DNA of 58,959 nucleotides from a virus (IMGVR_UViG_2541047708_000006), one strand, 5' to 3'. Shown: positions 19,254-31,012, counted from the stretch's first letter. The notes: generated by a model not told the origin, from the letters alone. Translations and numbers: made by a program.

Positions 19254-20033
19254 TTACGCCAGTTGTACGGACACGAACGCATCAGGGTCAGCCAGCAGCA
19301 TCAGCGGTGCTGACTGAATCATGGTGAACTCACGCGCCGGATCGCCGGTGGTCACCCAGTTTTTCGGGTAGCGGGCAGAGGCGTTAATACCTTCGCGCTG
19401 TGCGTCCGCATCCTGAATGCAGCCATAGGTGCGCAGACCGCGTGCCTGAGTGTTCCCCAGCACCATCGTGTTGTCCGGCAGGAAGTTCTTTTTGACGTCG
19501 TTTTCCACGTACTGTCCGGAATACACGACGATCGCCGTATCGCCATACATCCCCTTATAGGACACCGCTTCGCCCAGGTCTTTTACCGCTGTCTCCAGCT
19601 CGGAATTAGAGCCGCGACGGGTATCCAGCTTCTCCTTGACGGCTTTGAAGGAACGGAACAGCGCCCAGCCTTTCGGATCAAACACGATGATATTCACCAC
19701 GCCGCTGGCGTTCAGCGCGTAGGCTTCGATATCGTCGGTCGGGTCATACGTGGACTTGTCACGCTTGCTCCACTCCGTACCACCGGACTGTGTGATGTTG
19801 TTCGCCGCACTGCGGCCCATATCCACTTCAACCGGATCGAAGGCTTCACCGGTCATGGTGTATTTGCCCTTAAGCACGGCAGAAACTGCCTGCATCTCTT
19901 CGACCTGAGCAATGGCCAGCTCTTCGTCTCGCATGTTCTGCATGATGATGCGACGGCGGCGGTAAGCCGGGTCCGCCAGATTCTGTGGATCTTCATCCGG
20001 CAGGCGACGCAGGGTCATCTGCGGATTCACCTC
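19254..20033 (-). pseudogene. E: Major capsid protein E, 3' portion (codons 83-341) separated from its 5' portion by the inserted satellite
   Basis: Translation EVNPQMTLRRLPDEDPQNLADPAYRRRRIIMQNMRDEE... matches recalled lambda gpE from residue 83; no upstream start; stop codon 3 codons upstream of junction. Confidence 0.9.
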
Positions 20034-20034
20034 A

Positions 20035-20044
20035 TGCTTGGGTT
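20035..20044 (+). repeat. Satellite att core, left copy (TGCTTGGGTT)
   Basis: Identical 10-mer at 30768-30777; lies exactly at the break in gene E. Confidence 0.8.
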
Positions 20045-20203
20045 ACATGAGTCAATGGTGTAAGTATGTGAATGATATAAGAGGAAAAATAGAGCATAAT
20101 CTCTACCTGAATGGCTATGTTGCAATACACACTGCAATACACAGAAATCAATGTACAAACCATTCAATTATCAACCCACAAATGAAGTGAATAAAGATTT
20201 GTT

Positions 20204-20965
20204 ATGAATATTATAGATACCCTTCAAAATGACCTAGAGCGCGCAGTAGCGCTTCAAAACATACTAATTGCAAGAGCTACAGGAGCCCAGGATGAAGCTA
20301 ATAATGATTATTTGCTTCTAAGAACATATTTCTTACAAAATCCTCCTTTACATCAGCTATTACCAGAGTTTGTGAGAACTAATCGCTCACTAAAAGAATT
20401 TTGGGGATTTATAAAAAAGACTGAAAAGTATGCCCCCCGGAGAGATTTGATTTATAAGGCATTTCAGCCGATGCTGGACTATCTAGAAGGGAAAAATAAA
20501 GCTCCAGCGGATGAAGACATATCTGATGTATTAAGAAAGTTTAACGAGGATGGAGTCCACGCCGTTTGGATAAAAGCACTTGAACGGCGCCATACAGATC
20601 CGGATGGTGCGATAACCTCCGCAAGAACACTTCTTGAAACAGTTTGCAAACACATTCTTGATGATATGGGCATTCAGTATAATAATAAAAATATTGAAAT
20701 GTCAGAGCTTTATAAAACTCTTTCAAAAGAACTTAACCTATCTGCCGACCAACATACTGAAAATATCTTCAAACAAATTCTCGGCGGTTGTTCTGCAGTT
20801 GTAAATGGGTTAGGTACTCTTCGTAATAAACTCGGTGATGCACATGGAACGAACAGCTCATCAATTAAGCCATCCCCAAGGCATGCCGAACTTGCAGTAA
20901 ATTTATCAGGCTCAATGGCTCTTTTTTTAATTAACACTTGGTTAAACCTTAAAGATGGGAAATAA
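20204..20965 (+). CDS. HEPN-type Abi_C-like (abortive infection C-terminal domain) protein
   Basis: 253 aa, AT-rich; C-terminal motif LRNKLGDAHG (R-x6-H) typical of HEPN/Abi_C. Confidence 0.7.
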   Translation: MNIIDTLQNDLERAVALQNILIARATGAQDEANNDYLLLRTYFLQNPPLHQLLPEFVRTNRSLKEFWGFIKKTEKYAPRRDLIYKAFQPMLDYLEGKNKAPADEDISDVLRKFNEDGVHAVWIKALERRHTDPDGAITSARTLLETVCKHILDDMGIQYNNKNIEMSELYKTLSKELNLSADQHTENIFKQILGGCSAVVNGLGTLRNKLGDAHGTNSSSIKPSPRHAELAVNLSGSMALFLINTWLNLKDGK

Positions 20966-21187
20966 CGTATAATGAAGTAACACGAGCAATTAGTTAATCA
21001 TTATACTCAGTCGATTAATTTATTTTGACGACTCGTAAGCAATTTTTCGATGAGGGCGGAACTCCGCCCTCGGTGCTAACCTATGAGAAACGATATCTCT
21101 TCCACCGATACCATAATATTAGGTATCGCGAAGAAGCCCCAAAATCAGTGTGTTGCTTTTACTACCCAAACTACCTGTAGTTTCATA

Positions 21188-21213
21188 GTCGAGTTGCAAA
21201 TTTGCAATTCGAC
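21188..21213. promoter_or_regulatory. 26 bp near-perfect palindrome (candidate operator)
   Basis: GTCGAGTTGCAAATTTGCAATTCGAC; one symmetric mismatch pair. Confidence 0.4.
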
Positions 21214-21367
21214 TACCAGCCACAAGGCGTAAATTTGCGTCGTCAGGAATATCAACGAGTTAGCATATGAATAGGCCAAACGGCCACAAACCTCACTTTT
21301 GAGGCTTGCTCATTTATTAGCTGGCTATGGTAAGGCCCATTTTGGGGCCGTCGAGAAAATCAAAGAG

Positions 21368-21643
21368 TTATCGCCGCAGTCTGTCAGGCTTCTTCCACTG
21401 GTACGATGCAACGTTCTGGCGTTGTCCCTGCCTCCGCCTAGCTGCCAGTATAGCCAGCACTTTGGTGCGGATGACTAAGCAATCCTGTCCGTTCAGTTCT
21501 ATACCGTCACGCCACATAACCTCAGCAACCACACGAGCGTAATTTTCAGCGGTGACACTGCCCGGCTGCGTGGCCTGTTCGTCATGCTGGTGGCTGACTC
21601 CACCAGCATGGCAGATTACTTTCAGTAGTTCGGATTCAGTCAT
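21368..21643 (-). CDS. Hypothetical protein downstream of satellite TerS
   Basis: 91 aa ORF 12 bp downstream of TerS on the same strand. Confidence 0.4.
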   Translation of the reverse strand: MTESELLKVICHAGGVSHQHDEQATQPGSVTAENYARVVAEVMWRDGIELNGQDCLVIRTKVLAILAARRRQGQRQNVASYQWKKPDRLRR

Positions 21644-21654
21644 AGCGTACTACG

Positions 21655-22182
21655 TTACTTATCCTTATTCAGCTGCAACTTATCCGGTACGTTTCCTGTA
21701 CTTTCCATCAGATAATCAGCCAGTATCTGTGGGAGGTTGTCAGCAACGCCGGCACTGGCATTACAGGCTTTAGCCACTTCCTTTTTAAGTCCATCCAGCA
21801 TAGCCGGAGTCATCTGTGGGAAGCGCCTTTGCATGGTAAGCGGCAGGCTGTCCATGATAGATGAAATCTGACTCGCCAGTTTGGAAAGAACATACATACA
21901 AAACTCTGTATCAATAACGTCGCCGCGTTCGCGCTCGTTTTTAAGCTCCTGCGCCTCTGCCTGTGCTGTCAGTAATCTGATCCTGACGCGTAAAAGTTCA
22001 TCGTCATCAATATCGCCCGTTTCGTTTGTAATCTGGCTGATTGCATTGTTAACCCGATTATCTATTACACTGGCAACATCATAGAACGCCTCACGGCCCT
22101 TACGCTCGACGGGAATCACTCCCCACTTATCGAACGCAGTGGCGCTTACACGGCAACTTTTTGCCATGTTTTTTTTGTTCAT
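21655..22182 (-). CDS. Satellite small terminase subunit, divergent Nu1 homologue
   Basis: Aligns by eye with helper Nu1 (36411-36956) including C-terminal region ...LPLTMQRRFPQM...; start placed at MNKKNMAK. Confidence 0.8.
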   Translation of the reverse strand: MNKKNMAKSCRVSATAFDKWGVIPVERKGREAFYDVASVIDNRVNNAISQITNETGDIDDDELLRVRIRLLTAQAEAQELKNERERGDVIDTEFCMYVLSKLASQISSIMDSLPLTMQRRFPQMTPAMLDGLKKEVAKACNASAGVADNLPQILADYLMESTGNVPDKLQLNKDK

Positions 22183-22309
22183 CAGGTGTAATTTCATTGA
22201 TACCACAACTTAATTACTGTTTCAGGTTGGTGTATTGATTGTATTTTTCTCTTATTATTCATACAGATATAGCGAACAACAAAACCACCACCAGTCCCCT
22301 TAAAATGCT

Positions 22310-22370
22310 CATAAATAGCGAAAACCCGCGCGCCTGACGCCCCGTAGCCTGTCAGATCGCCGGAAAGGAC
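22310..22370 (-). promoter_or_regulatory. Satellite cos site (lambda-like cosN flanks, different 12-nt core)
   Basis: CATAAATAGCGAAAACCCGCG-CGCCTGACGCCC-CGTAGCCTGTCAGATCGCCGGAAAGGACCCG parallels helper cos at 37110-37175, differing mainly in the cohesive-end core. Confidence 0.7.
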
Positions 22371-22398
22371 CCGCCAGCCAGAGCAGGCCCTAATTTCA

Positions 22399-22782
22399 TC
22401 AACCAATCAGCTTATAGCGACCATCCCGTGCATTGCGGCGTACACGCTCAATCTTGAGGCATAGCGCCGCATCTGGCTTTTTTGGGACAGGTACGCGGCA
22501 ATATTCAGAAGCGCGAGGAATATTATTTATCCAGTCGATCACTTCACTTAAATACCAGGCCTTACGCCCTTCCGTAACCTGCACACGCTCCGGGAACTCT
22601 CCACTAGCCTCAAGGTTTAGCAGTGTACGACGACTCAGGGTTGTAATTTCCATCACCTGATTCATATCAACAAGGCGCTCGCTTAAACACATTTTGTCAG
22701 CGATAGCTTTTAATTCCTCTACAGCTTGATTCGGGTACATCATTTCGGCAATTGGCTTAAGGTCATTGTAATCATTCTGCAT
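22399..22782 (-). CDS. AlpA/excisionase-family HTH DNA-binding protein
   Basis: C-terminal half MEITTLSRRTLLNLEASGEFPERVQVTEGRKAWYLSEVIDWINN is an AlpA-like motif; start uncertain. Confidence 0.6.
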   Translation of the reverse strand: MQNDYNDLKPIAEMMYPNQAVEELKAIADKMCLSERLVDMNQVMEITTLSRRTLLNLEASGEFPERVQVTEGRKAWYLSEVIDWINNIPRASEYCRVPVPKKPDAALCLKIERVRRNARDGRYKLIG

Positions 22783-22793
22783 TGTATCCCCCT

Positions 22794-23135
22794 TTACACA
22801 CGAGCCAGCGGCTGAACAGAAATACCTGAGCCAACAAACGCTGCAACCTTTACTGACAGTTCTTTAACAGACTCAGGCCAGTTCAGAGCATCAACATTTA
22901 AGACACCTGTCTTATAGACCTGAGCCTGTGTTTTTTTCGCGGTGTCGATTTGTACAGCGGAAACATAAACCGCTTTACCTACGCTCGAACCATCCCATAC
23001 TACCAGTGCACCTGTTGCATCTTCCTGCATCAGTGGCGTAAATGCAGGAATTACCCCTTTATTAGCTGAAAATATCCCCAGCGTAGTCACCAGTGCTTCA
23101 GTGCCAGCCATGAGTTCAGTGTAATGAGTAGCCAT
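22794..23135 (-). CDS. Head decoration protein, divergent gpD homologue
   Basis: 113 aa; shares TPLM, LVxWDG, AxVGxxAV, LxWP, AFxG blocks with helper gpD (31068-31400). Confidence 0.7.
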   Translation of the reverse strand: MATHYTELMAGTEALVTTLGIFSANKGVIPAFTPLMQEDATGALVVWDGSSVGKAVYVSAVQIDTAKKTQAQVYKTGVLNVDALNWPESVKELSVKVAAFVGSGISVQPLARV

Positions 23136-23144
23136 TGCTCCCCC

Positions 23145-24191
23145 TTAGCCAATGCGAACGGTAACAAAACGATTGATGCGGGCCGGTATTGGCTGTGGTG
23201 CTGAATGTGTCTGCACATATTCAATAGCCGGATCACCAGGCACAATATAGTTTTTCGGTGCAAGTTCGGCTTTAGTCAGCCCCATTCGGATTAGCTCCGG
23301 ATCCTGAATACCGCCATAGGCGACAATCCCCTGAAGAGCCGTATTGCCAAGCACCATCAAATCAGGATCAAGGAAATGTTTTTCTGTTCCGTCCTCGTCG
23401 GTATAACGCCCGCTGTAAACAACAATCGCAACATCGCCCATATACCCTTTAAAACTCACCGAATCACCAAGGTCTTTAAGGGCCGTTTCCAGTTCGGAAT
23501 TAGAACCACGACGGGTATCCAGAGCCTCTTTTATCGCTCTGAATGAACGGTATTTCTTCCATACATTACCGCCCATAATGATAATATTAGTGACGCCCTC
23601 ACTAAATTCTGCGTAGCTCTCAATATCATCATTTGGATCAAAAGTTTCTTTATCCTTACCTGACCACTCAGCACCGCCAGACTGAGTGATGATATTTTGT
23701 GGTTTAATATTCCAGTCCAGCTCATAACGTTCAATACCATCGCCCTCAATGATATTTTTCCCCGTTGTGATTGCCTGAACGGCAAGCCATTCAATACGTG
23801 CACGAATAGCTTTAGCCTGATTTACAATCGCCTGTTTAACTTTAATATTACGCGCTCCAAAAGCATTGTATTGCTCAGGTGATACACCAACAGGGCGCAC
23901 AGCTAACTTATTTGGATCAATGCTGCTTTTCGGCTTCATATAGCCTGGACGAATTGTTTTTGATTCGTACCCTTCGTCACGTGAAACTTTACTACCCACC
24001 ATAGGAGAACAAAACGCTGCAATTGGGATATTTGGATCGTCGATTGTATCAAGAATAATATCGCGCGATTCAAACATTACCGAGCGAGTAAAAAACAAAC
24101 TGGTAAACAACGCATTTAGTTGTTTTTGTACATCTACAGCATTAACCACCTGTACAAGCTGGGTAGGCGAATATAAATCAACCATACGCAT
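23145..24191 (-). CDS. Major capsid protein, divergent gpE homologue
   Basis: Start placed at MRMVDLYSPTQL; C-terminal two thirds align with gpE (ITQSGGAEWSGKDKETFDPNDDIESYA..., LDTRRGSNSELETALKDLG...). Confidence 0.8.
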   Translation of the reverse strand: MRMVDLYSPTQLVQVVNAVDVQKQLNALFTSLFFTRSVMFESRDIILDTIDDPNIPIAAFCSPMVGSKVSRDEGYESKTIRPGYMKPKSSIDPNKLAVRPVGVSPEQYNAFGARNIKVKQAIVNQAKAIRARIEWLAVQAITTGKNIIEGDGIERYELDWNIKPQNIITQSGGAEWSGKDKETFDPNDDIESYAEFSEGVTNIIIMGGNVWKKYRSFRAIKEALDTRRGSNSELETALKDLGDSVSFKGYMGDVAIVVYSGRYTDEDGTEKHFLDPDLMVLGNTALQGIVAYGGIQDPELIRMGLTKAELAPKNYIVPGDPAIEYVQTHSAPQPIPARINRFVTVRIG

Positions 24192-24402
24192 CCTCTTTGC
24201 ATTCATTAAAAATAATTGTGGATATATGCTATCACCGATATTTGTCATGCGAATACATGCAACCGAGTGCAATGTTGTATAAAGTTTTGGGATAACAACT
24301 TCAGCGCGGATAATTAGTGTTAATATCTTCACTCCCTTTGGTCGGGATTTATGTAGCATGCCGGAAAATTTATTTTTTTCCGGCCTTTTTTATTGGCAAT
24401 AT

Positions 24403-24852
24403 TTAAAACGGAATATCATCTCCCCATTGTTCATTATCTCCCACTGGTGGATGGCTTCCTTGCTGATCTGCCTGTTGTTTTGCTCTGTTCAGTGCGTCAG
24501 TAGCCTGACCCTGTTGACCTTTTTTGCCGCCCGGTCGCACCGTTCGCGCACTGATTACGCTGTCTGCGATAACCTGCCAGCCCTGCCGCGTTTCACCGTT
24601 CTGTCCAGTCCACTGGCTCACCTGCATATTACCCGCCACGCTCAGGAGTTCGCCTTTGTGATGCTTTGCCAGCGCGTCGGCTTGTCTGCCAAACGCCAGG
24701 ACAGATAACCACATCGTCGCCTGACCGTCATCCGACTGACTGCAGGGCAGTGATACCGCCATACGCGCCAGCGTCATGGGGGTGCCCTTGCTGGTCTGTT
24801 TTGTCTGCGGGTCGTCCACCAACCGCCCGTAAACTGATATTTGCGCCGTCAT
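24403..24852 (-). CDS. ssb: Single-stranded DNA-binding protein
   Basis: OB-fold-like N-terminal region, Gly/Gln-rich linker and acidic C-terminal tail ending DDIPF. Confidence 0.85.
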   Translation of the reverse strand: MTAQISVYGRLVDDPQTKQTSKGTPMTLARMAVSLPCSQSDDGQATMWLSVLAFGRQADALAKHHKGELLSVAGNMQVSQWTGQNGETRQGWQVIADSVISARTVRPGGKKGQQGQATDALNRAKQQADQQGSHPPVGDNEQWGDDIPF

Positions 24853-25094
24853 GCTGCCTGCTCTCCGGACTTAATATTGATTGTTGCCACTTCCTCCGCT
24901 TCAGCAATCTCCCGTTCGGTCAGAGTGGCAAAGTTTGCAGCCGCCGTTGTCATGAATGCGCTAATCAGTTCGGGATGTGCTTTCGCGTATCCTTCCCCGG
25001 CGTTGCGGTCGATGATTTTTATCGACACCCTTAACCAGTGTTCCGTCAAATCAAGGGCGTGCGATTGTGATTTTTTTGTGTGCTTCGCTGTCAT
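24849..25094 (-). CDS. Hypothetical protein
   Basis: 81 aa ORF between iterons and ssb, overlaps ssb start by 4 nt. Confidence 0.4.
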   Translation of the reverse strand: MTAKHTKKSQSHALDLTEHWLRVSIKIIDRNAGEGYAKAHPELISAFMTTAAANFATLTEREIAEAEEVATINIKSGEQAA

Positions 25095-25146
25095 AGGCTT
25101 TATCTCACAGCAGTAAATTAAAATTTTTGCGTTTTAACCCTTCACC

Positions 25147-25368
25147 TGTTCACCTTTTGATATTTTCTCTTTTAATTCATAATGTTAATGGGTGAACAGT
25201 TTCACAAAAACTATTCACCAACTGTTCACCACTGTTCACCCTTGAAGCTCAATAAACAATCAAAAAGGTGAACAGTGAATAGTTTGGTGAACAGTTCATA
25301 AATAACTGTTCACCCTATAATATACTGATATAAAAGATATTTATGACAGGGTGAACAGTGGTGAACAG
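25147..25368. repeat. Satellite replication origin iterons (GGTGAACAG / CTGTTCACC, about 9 copies, both orientations)
   Basis: Repeated octamer TGTTCACC, the motif bound by phage P4 alpha protein at ori/crr; immediately downstream of the primase gene. Confidence 0.8.
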
Positions 25369-25381
25369 TTATTCCATAAGT

Positions 25382-27202
25382 TTAATTTTTGCTATCGTCA
25401 TTAGTGACCGATACACATGATGGCATCCAGTCTTCTGATTCCTCCGTCAGTGTCACGTTTGAACGCAAACCGTGCTTCGTTTTCCGTTTCATATACTCCC
25501 TGCCATATTCCGCCATTGCCCCCGGCATATCTTTACCGAAGCGCGTCAGTGTTACAGGTTTACCAAACCCATGTGCCCTCATATAAGCCAGATAGGCATG
25601 ATAGAGATACCTGCGTGGGCTGAATGGCACAATTTCAGCATTACCCACTAACAGGCCATCACACATTACCGATGCCATGAGATAGCCGCAGAAGTCCACC
25701 AGCGAATCCCCCTCTCGCTTTATCGCCAGTGCTTCTTCAGATTTCTGCTGCTCATATAACAGGCGTCTGGCTTCGTCCTGATCAGCAAACCGTGTAAGCA
25801 GATGGCGAATCACTACCGCCAGCTCACCTTCTATTTTTTCCGCCAGCATCGAATCGCGTTCGTTCTCCGGTACAACTTCCGAAAAATTGAATATCACCCG
25901 ACGACGTGAGATCCCCCCGCTGCGGTCACTGAATGACATGGCGTTATTGTTAACCGCCAGCACTACTGCCGGAATACGCGTTGAATAGGGGGCTTTGTGT
26001 TTCGGGTCAATTGCCACCTTGTCACCGCCTGTAATGGCCTTAATCCCTGCCCCATCACCAGCGTAGCGGGTCATATCCGGCATGATAATCAGCGAAAAGC
26101 CAACCACTAACGCACGTTCCCTTGCATCTTCCAGCGCCTTCATGCTTGCTGATACTGTATTCGCCTTACCCGCCAGCATGGTGCAAATCTCCGCCATCAC
26201 ACTTTTACCACTTCCCCCCGGCCCTGTTACCTCAATGAATAACTGCCAGTCGTACCGGTTCGCCAGCACCATGAATAATGCCGCCAGTACGCGATCTGCC
26301 TTGCGGTCATTCTCAGCCACCGAACGGCGCAACCACTTCCAGAAATTCGGCGCATGTGTTGCCAGCGTTTCCCCCTCTGCTGGTGGGCTGAAAGGTAATT
26401 CACTGGCAATTAACAACCAGTCGTTTTTGTTATGCTCCCGAAAATTACCAGTTCTGGTATCAAATACCCCGTTACTGAATCCAATCAGGTTACGGGCTGT
26501 ATTCCCCATTACAGGCAAACTTAACTTCATGGTATCTACCGCCGATTTAATGGCGTTCTGCGAATAGCTGATCTCCGCATCAATGAAAATCTGCGCCATA
26601 GCACGCTGTAACTCTTTATCCTGAACCGGCTCCCATACAACGCCGTTGTAATGATGAACGGTGTCAGAGTCGGCATTGATTGCCAGTTCGCCGCCGTAAT
26701 GTGCAAGGAGAACTTCACCGCGCTGGCTGGCCCCCATCTGATTCAACGCCAAAGATGAAGCACGCTCGTCATTTTTGCGCTCTGCCTTCTTCACTGGCAG
26801 TTCAATCACCAGACTTTCCCCATGCTCCGCTTCAGCTTTTAGGCCGACAAGGCGCGGAGTCCAGTCTTCAGGCTCTCGATCAACAAAGCTACGGTAACAA
26901 CGTGCTTCCTTTACGCCTGCAATAGCAAGTAATGTCGCAACCTTCGTCAGACTTTTCTCTGCAATCTTTCCGGCACGATAAACACGCACATAATGACGGC
27001 CTTCATCGATAATTTGCATATCATCCAGGTTTTCCAGTTGTTCCGTACCCAGAATGACTGGTGGTGTATCATCTGCTGCAATATGCTTACCTGCCCATTC
27101 ATTCCATTCTTTTGCATGGCTCCAGGCATCACTGCCAGCAAAAATGATGACTTCCGTCATTTTGTCGCGCGGTTGGTATTTTAAGTTCGGAGCACGTTTC
27201 AT
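25382..27202 (-). CDS. P4 alpha-like primase-helicase
   Basis: 606 aa; Walker A GPGGSGKS in the central region; position next to TGTTCACC iterons. Confidence 0.85.
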   Translation of the reverse strand: MKRAPNLKYQPRDKMTEVIIFAGSDAWSHAKEWNEWAGKHIAADDTPPVILGTEQLENLDDMQIIDEGRHYVRVYRAGKIAEKSLTKVATLLAIAGVKEARCYRSFVDREPEDWTPRLVGLKAEAEHGESLVIELPVKKAERKNDERASSLALNQMGASQRGEVLLAHYGGELAINADSDTVHHYNGVVWEPVQDKELQRAMAQIFIDAEISYSQNAIKSAVDTMKLSLPVMGNTARNLIGFSNGVFDTRTGNFREHNKNDWLLIASELPFSPPAEGETLATHAPNFWKWLRRSVAENDRKADRVLAALFMVLANRYDWQLFIEVTGPGGSGKSVMAEICTMLAGKANTVSASMKALEDARERALVVGFSLIIMPDMTRYAGDGAGIKAITGGDKVAIDPKHKAPYSTRIPAVVLAVNNNAMSFSDRSGGISRRRVIFNFSEVVPENERDSMLAEKIEGELAVVIRHLLTRFADQDEARRLLYEQQKSEEALAIKREGDSLVDFCGYLMASVMCDGLLVGNAEIVPFSPRRYLYHAYLAYMRAHGFGKPVTLTRFGKDMPGAMAEYGREYMKRKTKHGLRSNVTLTEESEDWMPSCVSVTNDDSKN

Positions 27203-27486
27203 TTGTTACCTCCGGCAACTAACATTGCCCGAATTTTACGGATATAGCCTGCGGCACGCCTCTGATTATCTGTCTTGCAATTTTTTACCAGAATGAAATC
27301 TCTTTCGAACTGCTGACGCGGCATAACACATTCAAAATCATAACCATCACGCAAATAAGAGACACGACGATCATCAACCGAAATAATCTTTACCCGATAG
27401 CCATAGCTATCTTTGAAAATATCCCCAAGGCTGATTTTTGAATGAGTTTGACCGCTGGCAATAAAGCCAGAAAATTTATTTTTCAT
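27199..27486 (-). CDS. Hypothetical protein
   Basis: 95 aa, overlaps primase start by 4 nt. Confidence 0.5.
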   Translation of the reverse strand: MKNKFSGFIASGQTHSKISLGDIFKDSYGYRVKIISVDDRRVSYLRDGYDFECVMPRQQFERDFILVKNCKTDNQRRAAGYIRKIRAMLVAGGNK

Positions 27487-27489
27487 TTT

Positions 27490-27714
27490 TTATTCTCCGG
27501 TATAGCTCTGGTCGTGTATTTTTATAGCTTCATCCAGCTCTTTGATGACAGGATCAAGTAACGTAATTAACGCTCCAGCTAAATTAGCATCCCGTTCATC
27601 GTGTTCCGCATTTGTTGTCCCATCAAGCCAGGTTGATAAGATTTCTCGCATATTTTTGCCACAAACGAGCGCGTTTTCAGCATGTGTCAGCACTTTAAAA
27701 TAAAGATCATTCAT
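27490..27714 (-). CDS. Hypothetical protein
   Basis: 74 aa, acidic; tightly packed in operon. Confidence 0.5.
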   Translation of the reverse strand: MNDLYFKVLTHAENALVCGKNMREILSTWLDGTTNAEHDERDANLAGALITLLDPVIKELDEAIKIHDQSYTGE

Positions 27715-28072
27715 GGCACACCTCCTGACGAATACGGGCGGCGAACATCATCACGCAGCCAGTTGGGGATTGCTGGCGGGCTTCCTGTTCGCTGGTGGCC
27801 TCGATGGTAATCACGCGCGGTTGTGCCGTACTCAGGGCGATAAAACGCCAGATGAAATTGTTTTCACATTTCTGAATAAACAGCGTGTTTTCTTCCCGCC
27901 CTTTCCAGAAAGCCGCAGTATAGCCCATCTCCTTAACCATCTTGCGCGCATCAACCAGCGTGTCAGCGGCTACATGTACCGTAGTTGCTCCATCTGCTAT
28001 GCGATCGCGATGTAGCGCCAGAAAGATGTATATAAATTTAGGGTGAGTTTGGGTATGCTGTGTTCCAGCCAT
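27707..28072 (-). CDS. Hypothetical protein
   Basis: 121 aa; first gene of leftward satellite operon. Confidence 0.5.
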   Translation of the reverse strand: MAGTQHTQTHPKFIYIFLALHRDRIADGATTVHVAADTLVDARKMVKEMGYTAAFWKGREENTLFIQKCENNFIWRFIALSTAQPRVITIEATSEQEARQQSPTGCVMMFAARIRQEVCHE

Positions 28073-28103
28073 AGTCGTTACTCCAGTTAACGGTTTGTGG
28101 TTA

Positions 28104-28208
28104 GACGCCCTAGGTGTGTTGCGAGCACCCTAGGGCGTTGTTTATAGGTATAACATCATGTTAATGTGTGTACCTATTCAACACTGATGCTAAGCAATAG
28201 GTACACAC
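28104..28208. promoter_or_regulatory. Divergent promoter/operator region with two inverted repeats
   Basis: GACGCCCTAGGTG...CACCCTAGGGCG and GTGTGTACCTATT...AATAGGTACACAC; the second abuts the ATG at 28209. Confidence 0.4.
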
Positions 28209-28403
28209 ATGTCAACTACAATTCAAAGAGATAAGCAGCCAAAAGGAGCCGGCAAAGCCCCTGCGTTTCAGATCCGAATCAATCCTGAACTCAAAGAACA
28301 GATGGCTGAATCAGCAGCTCAGGAAGGAATGAGCTTGGCCAATTGGATTAAAGAATTAGTTCGTGCTGAGCTTCGCCGTAAAGGTATAGAACCTAAAGGC
28401 TAA
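28209..28403 (+). CDS. Ribbon-helix-helix (Arc/CopG-like) small DNA-binding protein
   Basis: 64 aa; FQIRINPELKEQMAESAAQEGMSLANWIKELVRAEL fits beta-strand/helix/helix pattern. Confidence 0.6.
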   Translation: MSTTIQRDKQPKGAGKAPAFQIRINPELKEQMAESAAQEGMSLANWIKELVRAELRRKGIEPKG

Positions 28404-28435
28404 TTTTTTTAATTTTTATTGAATAGGATATTCAA

Positions 28436-29119
28436 ATGACTCCAACTCCTGACGATGCTGTATTCACTGCATCAAACATTATAAATTTCTTCGTGGCACT
28501 CGGGACTTGCACAGCAGTGTTAGTTGCATTAATTGCTAAAAAGCAATCATCTTTTGAATCAACATTTTCTCTCATGTTATCTCAACATAACAATGCTCTA
28601 AATGATCTTAGAAAAAAATCAAATTACTCAGAGTTAATTAATAAAATGATGAATGGATTGGTTTCTTTAAAAGACACTAATACACTGATGCACAATCATG
28701 ATGCTGTTTTTGGAAGCTACTTCAGAATATTATATCATCTATTGAAGTTCATTGATGAAAATGCTGGATACCATCCCTTTGATCTAGATCGTAAAAAAAC
28801 CTATACAAGCCTTGTCCGTGCACATCTAGATAATGAAATAACGTATTTACTTGCAATAAACTGTGCACATGCTAACAGTGAAAATCAATATCATTTTTAT
28901 AAAACATTGATTGAGCGCTATGCCATGTTAGAACATTTAATCTTGGATAAATCAACGCTATTGGACTATACCCCTCCAGATTTAAATGAATATCAAAAAG
29001 ATTTGCGCGTAGCAACAATAGTGGTTACCGATGATATAAAAACTATTTTTAACGAGATTGCAACAGTATATTATAAGAGCGCATTTGGAAAAAACCCTGA
29101 TTTAAAAAATTTCCTGTAA
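28436..29119 (+). CDS. Membrane-anchored protein of unknown function (candidate abortive-infection effector)
   Basis: 227 aa, AT-rich; one N-terminal TM helix (IINFFVALGTCTAVLVALIA); 33 bp downstream of the RHH gene. Confidence 0.65.
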   Translation: MTPTPDDAVFTASNIINFFVALGTCTAVLVALIAKKQSSFESTFSLMLSQHNNALNDLRKKSNYSELINKMMNGLVSLKDTNTLMHNHDAVFGSYFRILYHLLKFIDENAGYHPFDLDRKKTYTSLVRAHLDNEITYLLAINCAHANSENQYHFYKTLIERYAMLEHLILDKSTLLDYTPPDLNEYQKDLRVATIVVTDDIKTIFNEIATVYYKSAFGKNPDLKNFL

Positions 29120-29145
29120 GATATAGGGAGGAATACCTCCCTAAC

Positions 29146-29367
29146 TTACCATTCACCTCTTATCCAAGCTTGAATCTCAGAGAGTCTATAAGCCACCGCC
29201 GTAGATCCGATTTTGATTCGCTTGGGGAATTTCCCCTCCTTTTCAAGCTTCCAGCGTGTGCTGTTCGCAAGAGTGGTTAGCTCCCGACATTCTTTCTCAC
29301 GGATCATTCGGTCAATGTTAGGAATGTACTCCAGCCCCTTTTTATCAACAATTGCCATTTTTTTCAT
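29146..29367 (-). CDS. alpA: AlpA-family transcriptional regulator/excisionase
   Basis: 73 aa, typical AlpA pattern, directly downstream of integrase. Confidence 0.8.
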   Translation of the reverse strand: MKKMAIVDKKGLEYIPNIDRMIREKECRELTTLANSTRWKLEKEGKFPKRIKIGSTAVAYRLSEIQAWIRGEW

Positions 29368-29368
29368 G

Positions 29369-30604
29369 CTAACCAGCCTTTTGTTTGAGGATTGTCACTT
29401 TTGAATCAGCAGCTGCGATGCTATTGAGATATGTAGTCCAGAGTTCCAGAGCATCCAGTTTTTTAGCCATAAACTTACTCCGGTTGTAAACACCTGCCAC
29501 GCCAGGTAGCGCATGGCCTAACAGTTGTTCTACTACATAAAATTCAACACCGAGATCACTTAGATGAGTAGATAGCGTTCTTCTAAGGTCGTGTAGTGAC
29601 CATTGTTTTTCATGGCCCAAACGTTTACCGATTTTCCCCCCAATCTTGCTTACGCTTTCTCTAATTCGCAGACTTCCCAGCACATAACCAGTATGTTTTG
29701 TCTCTTCGTGAACATCCGTTACCCACTGCCGTAGAATTTCAGGTACTGGCCTGACAATTTCAACACCAGTTTTTGAGTGATCTTTCGGTACAGTCCAAAC
29801 CCAACTTTCTAGATCCCATTCGCTCCATTCTGATAATCGGGCTTCACTCATTCGACATCCAAATACTGTACAAAGCACAAACATTTTTCGCGTGTATTCA
29901 GACATTAGTTTTAAATCAGGCTCGACAAAAATTGCCTTCCAGAGCTGGCCCAGTTCGGCTTCATCCAGAACCCGATCCCGCTTACCTGCAATCTGCCCCA
30001 CATCACTCATGCGCAAATCCTTTAAAGCATCACACGTCGCGTACTGGCGTACCCGACAAAAACGAAGAGCTAATTTAGTGTCAGAAAAAACATACGCCGC
30101 CATAACTGGTGCATTACGTTTAATTCGGTCAAAACAGTCCAGCCATTCATATAGGTGAGTGTCATTTACGGGCAAATGACCGATATAGGGAAAGATATGC
30201 TTTCGAAATCTGCCAAGCGTTACAGCATGAGTTTTACGACGCACCTTACAGTAATTTTCATACCAGTAATTTAGTGCATCCTCCACTGTGACCGGCTTTA
30301 AGCGTTCTTCAGCCTGAATCTTAATCTGAATACGCGGATCACGTTTGTCAGCCAACCAACCACGGCACTCGTCGCGCTTTTCCCTTGCCTGTTTGAGTGA
30401 CATATCAGGATATTTACCCAACGTTAGCCAGACCGGAGCAGCCCGGCCACCTGCTAACCTGTAGAAGAAAACAAAGCTCACAGCCCCCTTGGTACTCACA
30501 CGAATAGAAAGCCCCTTTCCATCAGCAATGGTGATCTGCTTTTCTCTAGGTTTCCCCAGATATCCTTTAAGTGCTTTGTCGCTCAGTTTGTTCTCGCCAG
30601 CCAT
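29369..30604 (-). CDS. int: Tyrosine integrase (P4-like)
   Basis: Start placed at MAGENKLSDKALK (ORF track extends 44 codons further upstream); C-terminal HDLRRT...GH...Y catalytic signature; adjacent to att core. Confidence 0.9.
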   Translation of the reverse strand: MAGENKLSDKALKGYLGKPREKQITIADGKGLSIRVSTKGAVSFVFFYRLAGGRAAPVWLTLGKYPDMSLKQAREKRDECRGWLADKRDPRIQIKIQAEERLKPVTVEDALNYWYENYCKVRRKTHAVTLGRFRKHIFPYIGHLPVNDTHLYEWLDCFDRIKRNAPVMAAYVFSDTKLALRFCRVRQYATCDALKDLRMSDVGQIAGKRDRVLDEAELGQLWKAIFVEPDLKLMSEYTRKMFVLCTVFGCRMSEARLSEWSEWDLESWVWTVPKDHSKTGVEIVRPVPEILRQWVTDVHEETKHTGYVLGSLRIRESVSKIGGKIGKRLGHEKQWSLHDLRRTLSTHLSDLGVEFYVVEQLLGHALPGVAGVYNRSKFMAKKLDALELWTTYLNSIAAADSKVTILKQKAG

Positions 30605-30766
30605 TTTTAGCCCCAAAAAGCAATACAAGCTGCAATACAGAGATGATTGCAACACACAGATAACGAGGAAAATCCAGTGAAAGCGCCAGATAAACTTACT
30701 CTTTATTATCAAAAGATTAAGTGTAAAAACCAGCAACTACACGAAAGCCTCAGAAAGCCATGCTAA

Positions 30767-31012
30767 GTGCTTGGGTTTGACATATCCCGGTGTAAATTCA
30801 GAGGTGGAGCCGCCACGGGATCGGATAACCTCACCGGAAACAATCGGCGAAACGTACAGCGCCATGTTTACCAGTCCCGGAATTTGTGAGAGATAGACTT
30901 TCTCCGTGGTGAAGGGATAGCTCTCACGGAAAAAGAGACGCAGAAACAGCGGATCAAACTTAAATTTCTTCTCATTTGCCGCCAGCAGCTGGGCGGTTGT
31001 GTACATCGACAT
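30767..31012 (-). pseudogene. E: Major capsid protein E, 5' portion (codons 1-82), reads into satellite and stops after 9 foreign codons
   Basis: MSMYTTAQLLAANEKKFKFDPLF...GYVKPKH matches recalled gpE N-terminus, then LAWLSEAFV-stop. Confidence 0.9.
30768..30777 (+). repeat. Satellite att core, right copy (TGCTTGGGTT)
   Basis: Identical to 20035-20044. Confidence 0.8.

Follow-up and report, generated by a model that had tools for sequence, protein, structure and literature searches.

The window (the whole stretch of 58,959 nucleotides that was analysed) carries an intact Abi_C/HEPN family gene that starts with ATG and encodes 253 amino acids followed by a stop codon (Table 1). RefSeq names its product 'abortive infection family protein' (WP_001021158.1) in Escherichia coli O2:K2:H1 strain C 237-04 (NZ_CP109921.1), to which the window is 100% identical. 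The preliminary description had presented the gene as AT-rich cargo of a phage satellite, on the strand opposite to the satellite core genes and just inside an att site, and each of these points holds. The GC content of the gene is 0.382, as against 0.47 in the satellite core and 0.52 in the prophage to the left of the gene. The recognisable core genes are all on the minus strand and the Abi_C gene is on the plus strand, with its start codon about 160 bp inward of the 10-bp attL block.

The satellite is recognised by its integrase, AlpA-like protein, D5-type primase, SSB, lambda-E-like capsid protein, gpD-like decoration protein and Nu1-like small terminase, and the 10-bp att repeat bounds the element. 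The minus strand also encodes a small HTH protein, an Icd-like protein, a DUF4222 protein and a 90-aa protein. The element splits the lambda-E-like major capsid gene of a lambdoid helper prophage. [quoted passage not shown] The type element, 11capE, occupies the same capsid-gene site in E. coli NRG857c (Tommasini, Mageeney and Williams, 2023; PMC10111431), in a paper that counts 519 published HE-PICIs. The window satellite shares with it the lambda-E-like target, the 10-bp block, the doubled motif, an integrase gene of 98.9% nucleotide identity and, where examined, the gene order of the late zone.

The att features agree with the published ones in sequence as well as in position. The 10-bp att block described for 11capE matches that of the window. 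The published attP arms of HE-PICIs carry a unique doubled motif, tgTGTATTGCantgTGTATTGCa, located 81 bp from the crossover on one side and 132 bp on the other (PMC10111431), and the doubled motif in the window is its reverse complement, placed at the published distances of about 81 and about 132 bp from the att centre. Thus, insertion in a late gene, the 10-bp att block, two doubled TGTATTGC motifs at fixed spacing and the int-alpA-primase-late-zone organisation, by which the 11capE type is defined, are all found.

Expression signals around the Abi_C gene are faint. Its Shine-Dalgarno sequence is weak, and a terminator scan predicted none. A candidate sigma-70 promoter was found upstream, which is weak evidence because the promoter scan gave a number of sites no higher than in shuffled sequence.

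Table 1. Coordinates of the Abi_C gene, its domains, the satellite and the flanking helper gene in the window.
Feature	Coordinates	Strand	Remarks
Helper prophage major capsid gene (lambda E-like), C-terminal fragment	19254..20042	-	RefSeq pseudogene, missing N-terminus
Whole helper-embedded PICI, 11capE type	20035..30777	core genes -	about 10.7 kb
attL 10-bp identity block TGCTTGGGTT	20035..20044		left junction inside prophage gene E
Candidate sigma-70 promoter ATGATA-17-CATAAT	20072..20100	+	consensus match only
Doubled GCAATACA motif (HE-PICI attP arm)	20122..20145		left border of cargo slot, 59 bp upstream of start codon
Abi_C/HEPN family gene	20204..20965	+	ORF, Pfam Abi_C, PADLOC AbiJ C-terminal match, RefSeq annotation, more than 5700 homologs
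N-terminal helical domain, residues 1-95	20204..20488	+	AF2, phmmer, fusions to TIR/kinase effectors
C-terminal HEPN-fold domain, residues ~104-253	20513..20962	+	
Pfam Abi_C match, residues 168-243	20705-20932	+	Pfam
Predicted catalytic motif R207-N208-K-L-G-D212-A-H214 (HEPN R-x6-H)	20822..20845	+	sequence, invariance, SadR equivalent; codons of R207 at 20822-20824, of H214 at 20843-20845
Right border of cargo slot	21030..21290		non-coding, conserved with related PICIs; probable packaging/cos region
Hairpin GAGGGCGG-AACT-CCGCCCTC	21052-21071		within right-border region
Nu1-like TerS (small terminase)	21655-22197	-	
AlpA-like protein	22399-22782	-	
gpD-like decoration protein	22794-23135	-	
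Lambda-E-family major capsid protein	23145-24185	-	the satellite's own
SSB	24403-24852	-	
D5/P4-type primase-helicase	25382-27202	-	
Second antisense cargo gene, putAbiC (PF16872), 227 aa	28436..29119	+	int-proximal slot; Pfam E=2.8e-16
int (tyrosine integrase with arm-binding domain)	29369-30604	-	
Second copy of doubled arm motif	30620-30643		
Helper prophage major capsid gene (same gene), N-terminal fragment	30767..31012	-	RefSeq pseudogene, missing C-terminus
attR 10-bp identity block TGCTTGGGTT	30768-30777		

Domain organisation of the Abi_C protein

The C-terminal half of the protein is a HEPN-fold Abi_C domain with an intact predicted catalytic motif, and profile, motif and predicted fold all place the protein in Pfam Abi_C and the HEPN superfamily. 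The Pfam Abi_C profile (PF14355) scored E=1.3e-23 and 83.3 bits, against a gathering cut-off of 24, with profile positions 2-82 of 83 aligned. The PADLOC AbiJ model matched residues 129-243 (E=2e-21), the alignment covering only model positions 162-274 of 281. A full-length AbiJ ortholog was rejected because this model is matched C-terminally only and its N-terminal part finds no counterpart in the protein. Membership of the NCBIfam family STM4504/CBY_0614 (NF046078) was also rejected, with 17.3 bits against a cut-off of 150. A PDB sequence search with the whole protein gave no significant match.

Besides the Abi_C/HEPN assignment that these profile searches confirmed, the preliminary description had pointed to an R-x6-H motif, LRNKLGDAHG, in a helical context typical of HEPN domains. 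The motif is present in the translation and is the sole match to R-x(4-6)-H in the protein. By itself it is no evidence, because about one match is expected by chance at this protein size and composition; its significance derives from the Pfam Abi_C match and from the invariance of its residues among homologs. Among 46 aligned homologs (57-85% identity), R207, N208, D212, H214 and G215 were invariant, as were R128, R129, R141, E145 and K149, a block in the first HEPN helix. The helical context agrees with the fold predicted by AlphaFold2 from a homolog alignment (mean pLDDT 81): an all-helical, two-domain protein with an N-terminal bundle at residues 1-95, a low-confidence linker at 100-105 and a C-terminal bundle at 104-252 that conforms to the all-alpha HEPN fold.

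For the N-terminal part, residues 1-120 matched no family in Pfam or NCBIfam even at E<=10, the AbiJ_NTD3, AbiJ_NTD4 and AbiJ_NTD5 models included. When the N-terminal domain was modelled alone with AlphaFold2, pLDDT was 92. A phmmer search with residues 1-101 against 1.84 billion cluster representatives retrieved 693 clusters at E<=1e-3, 133 of them at E<=1e-10. Many of these matches have about 250 residues and the architecture of the window protein; a further group consists of longer proteins with a C-terminal domain of another kind. The domain is fused to TIR_2 (P0157, P0179 and P0192), to a CAP12/Pycsar-type TIR domain (P0226), to a protein kinase (Pkinase; P0213) and to regions without a Pfam model (P0143, P0166, P0186, P0261 and P0268). 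In PADLOC, the fused effector parts were related to ThsB-like TIR, bSEFIR, PD-T4-6 kinases and the candidate systems PDC-S35, S66 and S32. Pairwise identity between the N-terminal domain and its counterparts in the TIR and kinase fusions is 41-47%, and the similarity ends at around residues 96-120. Two TIR proteins carry the domain as a tandem duplication. Judged from these sequence comparisons, the fusion pattern is that of a module common to immune effectors.

A PDB search with a profile of the N-terminal domain gave nothing significant, and a fold search returned generic four-helix bundles only. The most likely task of this bundle of about 95 residues is sensing or auto-inhibition. Of these, sensing is no more than a guess, given the lack of a match to the AbiJ_NTD models and the generic nature of the fold hits; moreover, the identity of about 58-86% within the family, from Enterobacterales to Methylococcaceae, would be unusually high for a direct sensor of fast-evolving phage proteins.

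Cargo slots in helper-embedded satellites

The Abi_C gene occupies the end of the satellite opposite to int, between the doubled arm motif and the packaging-side region that starts at about 21030. In a five-way MAFFT alignment, too gapped to give exact indel borders, the stretch of about 21030-21290 was conserved with non-embedded PICIs that have no annotated gene there. This conserved stretch is probably the packaging region.

The content of the slot varies among closely related elements. For this comparison, elements with the same att site and an integrase at least 98.7% identical were used. The integrase of the window satellite is joined to an E-gene fragment in about 172 of 5426 complete E. 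coli genomes, and in 39 genomes of this set the Abi_C gene is joined to the other E fragment. A DUF2971 gene takes its place in 32 genomes (including strains Res13-Lact-PEB20-37-A, A37 and 980-2). Cassette-only queries, with genomic context checked just in the inspected genomes, found a GmrSD_N (DUF262) plus HEPN_RiboL-PSP pair resembling PD-T4-2 in 31 genomes (with the type strain NRG857C), DUF3892 plus hypothetical genes in 16 (AREA_C483), and a 57%-identical Abi_C paralog preceded by a 61-aa ORF in 4 (2015C-4136CT1). PADLOC assigned the NRG857C pair to PD-T4-2_A and _B and to NsnA, DUF2971 to the candidate system PDC-S31 and the paralog to AbiJ; the DUF3892 occupant had no defence match in PADLOC. 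When the whole elements of Res13 and A37 were inspected, their primase and DUF4222 proteins were identical to those of the window, and so was the integrase protein of Res13.

The cargo is antisense to the core genes in all five variants. In the alignment of the five left ends, the E fragment, the att block and the doubled motif are kept, and the sequences diverge directly past the motif. The proposal that the gene sits at a cargo position is thus borne out by other defence-type genes in the same slot and orientation, on backbones whose integrase is identical or at least 98.7% identical. The premise that satellite ends carry defence genes also agrees with the literature (PMC11364771; bioRxiv 10.1101/2024.07.02.601686): PICIs have immune systems at their 5' or 3' ends (He et al., 2024, citing Fillol-Salom et al., 2022; PMC11364771), and Abi_C or AbiJ_NTD proteins occur in Klebsiella PICIs according to the bioRxiv preprint. 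With its position at the satellite end, its variable content and its known or candidate defence occupants, the slot is a defence-cargo hotspot of the satellite.

A second variable slot lies next to int. In the window it is filled by the putAbiC gene, which is also antisense to the core genes, has a GC content of 0.323 and gave weak PADLOC matches to AbiC and AbiP. A DUF2971 element whose int, primase and DUF4222 proteins are those of the window has, in place of putAbiC, a SWIM protein and a 272-aa protein.

The Abi_C slot can be set beside the immune regions of PICIs and the defence hotspots of P4 satellites (Rousset et al., 2022; PMC9122126), which are likewise variable satellite ends with diverse defence genes transcribed independently of the core. 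[quoted passage not shown] The HE-PICI paper does not mention defence or abortive-infection cargo (PMC10111431), nor was any found for HE-PICIs in the later accessible literature.

The Abi_C gene is also found outside this slot. More than 5700 proteins match at E<=1e-3. The best 120 of these, ranging from Enterobacterales to a Methylococcaceae MAG, are all Abi_C proteins, nearly all of about 250 residues with at least 94% query cover and 58-86% identity; two are truncated partial sequences. A homolog from Klebsiella oxytoca (P0005, 70% identical) occupies the equivalent, att-proximal end of fis-integrated PICIs and is likewise antisense to their core genes. One from Klebsiella pneumoniae (P0002, 86% identical) is chromosomal, with a SIR2_2 protein and an IS fragment next to it, and P0078 (60% identical) is in a small islet amid housekeeping genes. 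No conserved neighbour gene was found across the E. coli, Klebsiella and metagenomic contexts examined, and when the E. coli and K. pneumoniae copies are compared, their DNA similarity reaches no further than about 20 bp beyond either end of the ORF. The mobile unit is therefore the single gene. A tblastn search against phage genomes gave four partial matches only. PHROG 23253, a group of unknown function, matches the protein over its full length, which probably reflects copies embedded in prophages.

Proposed function and alternative readings

The closest characterised relative is SadR of Staphylococcus aureus (Kondo et al., Nat Commun 2026; PMC13590631), a 266-aa Abi_C protein with the motif RNEYGDAH. 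In the presence of Mg2+, SadR breaks down both ssRNA and total RNA, but neither DNA nor dsRNA; on native PAGE it migrates at about 66 kDa. Several phages plate 10- to 10,000-fold less efficiently on cells with SadR, even when only one copy of the gene is present. Both its RNase activity and defence are lost in mutants R225A, N226A and H232A, and an escape mutant of phage 80-alpha maps to a single-strand annealing protein (SSAP) (PMC13590631). Like the window protein (253 residues, RNKLGDAH), SadR is a single-gene product with a C-terminal Abi_C domain, it has no recognised N-terminal Pfam domain, so that the window protein would join the 'no NTD' class of that paper, and its gene is next to or on mobile elements. 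It differs in coming from another phylum and in its locus, rlmH/SCCmec as against a helper-embedded PICI. RNase activity and restriction of phage and plasmid have been demonstrated for SadR alone.

Lactococcal AbiJ (Abi-859, L. lactis; the 'AbiJ' of PADLOC and DefenseFinder) also combines a C-terminal Abi_C/HEPN domain with a single-gene, abortive-infection-type organisation. The C-terminal domain is all it has in common with the window protein, the N-terminal halves being unrelated. Its escape mutants map to SSAP genes and its mechanism is otherwise uncharacterised (PMC13064643). Taranis, from a Vibrio cholerae superintegron cassette, is an Abi_C protein listed among newly discovered anti-phage systems in a preprint (bioRxiv 10.1101/2024.07.02.601686). 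Like the window gene it forms a small mobile cassette; according to the same preprint, its N-terminus is distantly related to AbiJ_NTD5, whereas the window protein has no such match. The literature search found no experimental data on the window protein or on homologs of more than 50% identity.

Because its catalytic domain is homologous to that of these characterised relatives, we propose, with a probability of roughly 0.75, that the gene encodes a single-gene, infection-activated anti-phage HEPN RNase that is carried as satellite cargo. The observations of the preliminary description stand, and its interpretation as satellite-borne Abi_C defence cargo is supported. By analogy with the relatives, the C-terminal domain of this stand-alone, two-domain protein would be a metal-dependent ssRNA endoribonuclease with R207, N208 and H214 as catalytic residues, and its activity and anti-phage effect would depend on the motif. 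Since HEPN domains act as dimers with a composite active site, the protein is expected to dimerise.

As cargo, the gene would be exchangeable, its place being the accessory slot at the 3' (int-distal) end of the HE-PICI. Its transcription would start at a promoter of its own and run antisense to the late genes of satellite and helper, so that it could be expressed in a lysogen in which the late genes are silent. Infection by a foreign phage, rather than its own helper, would activate the protein; RNA would be degraded, phage development would stop, and the clone that carries satellite and helper prophage would be protected, although the infected cell itself would probably stop growing or die. 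The escape mutants of AbiJ and SadR suggest by analogy that the trigger may be linked to single-strand-annealing or recombination functions of the phage, an idea drawn from relatives that may have N-terminal domains unlike that of the window protein. In a scan, not exhaustive, of eight proteins of the helper early region, no recognisable SSAP of the Redbeta, RecT or Erf type was found. Two observations bear weakly on the relation to the helper: this negative scan, and the placement of the gene behind the att-arm sites in an orientation opposed to helper late transcription.

A HEPN gene on a mobile element, adjoining an att site, could also be the toxin of a TA or addiction module that stabilises the satellite or the composite prophage by post-segregational killing, with defence as an incidental effect. 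HEPN RNases are common as TA toxins, as in HEPN-MNT modules (type II/VII), and AbiV belongs to a type III TA system (review PMC13064643). Such modules have an adjacent MNT antitoxin or a repeated antitoxin RNA, and neither accompanies the gene: no conserved partner ORF adjoins it, here or in other contexts, and SadR acts as a single gene. An Rfam scan of the satellite found no RNA and the sole tandem repeat nearby is the att-arm motif, common to elements with other cargo, so a type III antitoxin RNA was rejected. We regard an addiction role as improbable.

A role in the satellite life cycle is rated as similarly improbable. In such a role the protein would act on the helper, for instance through cleavage of its late transcripts, which would bias packaging to the satellite, and would have no part in defence against other phages. 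Interference of satellites with their helpers is common, the element is in the helper late operon and the gene is beside the probable packaging region (PMC10111431). However, the occupant of the slot differs between elements that agree in integrase and att site and even, in one case, in their int, primase and DUF4222 proteins; what the slot holds is therefore no core satellite function. The alternative occupants are recognised or candidate defence genes, and close homologs exist outside satellites, beside a SIR2 gene in a locus like a defence island and in small chromosomal islets. That the gene is an inert passenger, coding for a decaying or purely nucleotide-binding HEPN protein without a current role, appears remote. 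It would fit the weak Shine-Dalgarno sequence and the lack of a convincing promoter or terminator, but the ORF is full length and 99.5-100% identical in all 39 genomes, the catalytic-motif residues are all invariant in the family, and the size of the family, with its uniform length and coverage among the best 120 homologs, argues for purifying selection. The reading as an infection-activated RNase defence is thus preferred.

A further proposal concerns how such a defence would be switched on. The N-terminal domain might be an undescribed, widespread sensor or switch that links a single conserved cue of infection to a choice of effectors, here a HEPN RNase and elsewhere TIR NADases or a Ser/Thr kinase. 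In HE-PICIs, cargo that is antisense to the helper late operon and located just behind the arm sites for integrase or AlpA may in addition be silenced when the helper itself is induced, which would spare the helper. Taken jointly, these two ideas are speculative and rather unlikely to be correct in full. If true, antisense placement would let the satellite spare its helper by a cis-acting route and still kill competitor phages.

Implications for satellites and Abi_C proteins

The Abi_C/HEPN family, the 11capE group of HE-PICIs and defence cargo on satellites are known already, and none of the findings overturns current understanding. Two aspects that were not found in the accessible literature add modestly to it: the two defined defence-cargo slots of HE-PICIs, one of them bordered by the arm motif, and the unmodelled N-terminal domain that a large Abi_C subfamily has in common with TIR and kinase effectors.

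The HE-PICI cargo slot is sharply delimited, with a second one near int; the remaining 50 or so of the 172 E. coli elements could be mined there for new systems. Defining the N-terminal domain as a family would improve the detection of defence systems. The locus offers a clean, testable example of satellites that ferry interchangeable anti-phage genes and of Abi_C/HEPN proteins as RNase-based defences. Since the subfamily is large and highly conserved, a positive test of one member would annotate thousands of genes.

Capsid genes and helper backbone

[quoted passage not shown] Despite this insertion into a capsid gene, the satellite contains its own E-family capsid gene and a gpD-like decoration gene. 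Over 135 nt (19522-19656 vs 23416-23550), the capsid gene of the helper is 72% identical to that of the satellite. The published HE-PICI 11capE has the same configuration. The backbone of the helper prophage (about 35300-58959) is mosaic and Qin/CPS-53-like, with yfdP/Q/R, an XRE repressor, the ydfT antiterminator, the lysis genes essQ/rrrQ and cspB/F/I. Eight early-region proteins of the helper were scanned, and none was recognisable as an annealing protein of the Redbeta, RecT or Erf type.

Non-coding sites of the satellite

According to the PICI literature, the replication origin is located downstream of pri, and the repeat cluster next to the satellite primase gene is probably such an origin. 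The non-coding region 21030-21290, which is kept in related PICIs, contains a hairpin; it also contains motifs such as AATTTGCG...ATATCAACGAGTTA, which recur many times in one relative (L002). This region is probably a cos or TerS-binding region.

Features of the satellite and of a related element
Feature	Position	Strand	Context
putAbiC (PF16872) cargo gene, 227 aa	28436-29119	+ (antisense)	adjoins int and a small HTH gene
GGTGAACAGT-containing direct and inverted repeat cluster	25191-25379		just downstream of primase gene; repeat families D2, D5, D9
Hairpin GAGGGCGG-AACT-CCGCCCTC	21052-21071		inside the non-coding region
GmrSD_N (DUF262) + HEPN_RiboL-PSP two-gene cassette	L008 2037-3753		E. 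coli NRG857C, type HE-PICI 11capE, same slot as the Abi_C gene

Cargo slots and their contents

The putAbiC gene, the second antisense cargo gene of the satellite, is very AT-rich (32% GC), and its product gave weak AbiC/AbiP matches in PADLOC. In its place, a SWIM zinc-finger protein and a 272-aa unknown protein are encoded by elements whose primase and DUF4222 proteins are the same as here. This makes two cargo slots in the satellite.

The slot holding the Abi_C gene is occupied in NRG857C by the two-gene cassette, which matched PD-T4-2_A/B and NsnA in PADLOC and is not mentioned in the paper describing 11capE. In the HE-PICI of E. coli 2015C-4136CT1 (L011 4096-4784), tail assembly and tail protein fragments are found at the position of TerS in the others. 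For the PICI late zone, capture of helper late genes has been proposed, and the tail fragments are consistent with it.

In K. pneumoniae GCA_024703305.1 (L012 4912-10352), an 86%-identical Abi_C homolog lies between a 672-aa protein and a 645-aa SIR2_2 protein. The former is unannotated and encoded on the same strand, 70 bp upstream of the homolog. There is also an IS fragment next to the homolog, and the locus resembles a defence island that includes uncharacterised members.

The N-terminal helical domain of the Abi_C protein (about 95 aa; residues 1-101, 20204-20506), for which Pfam and NCBIfam have no model, recurs at 41-47% identity in other proteins, fused to TIR_2, a CAP12-type TIR, a Ser/Thr kinase or unknown C-terminal regions. 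Two TIR proteins carry it in tandem duplicate. The domain looks like a module common to single-protein immune systems.
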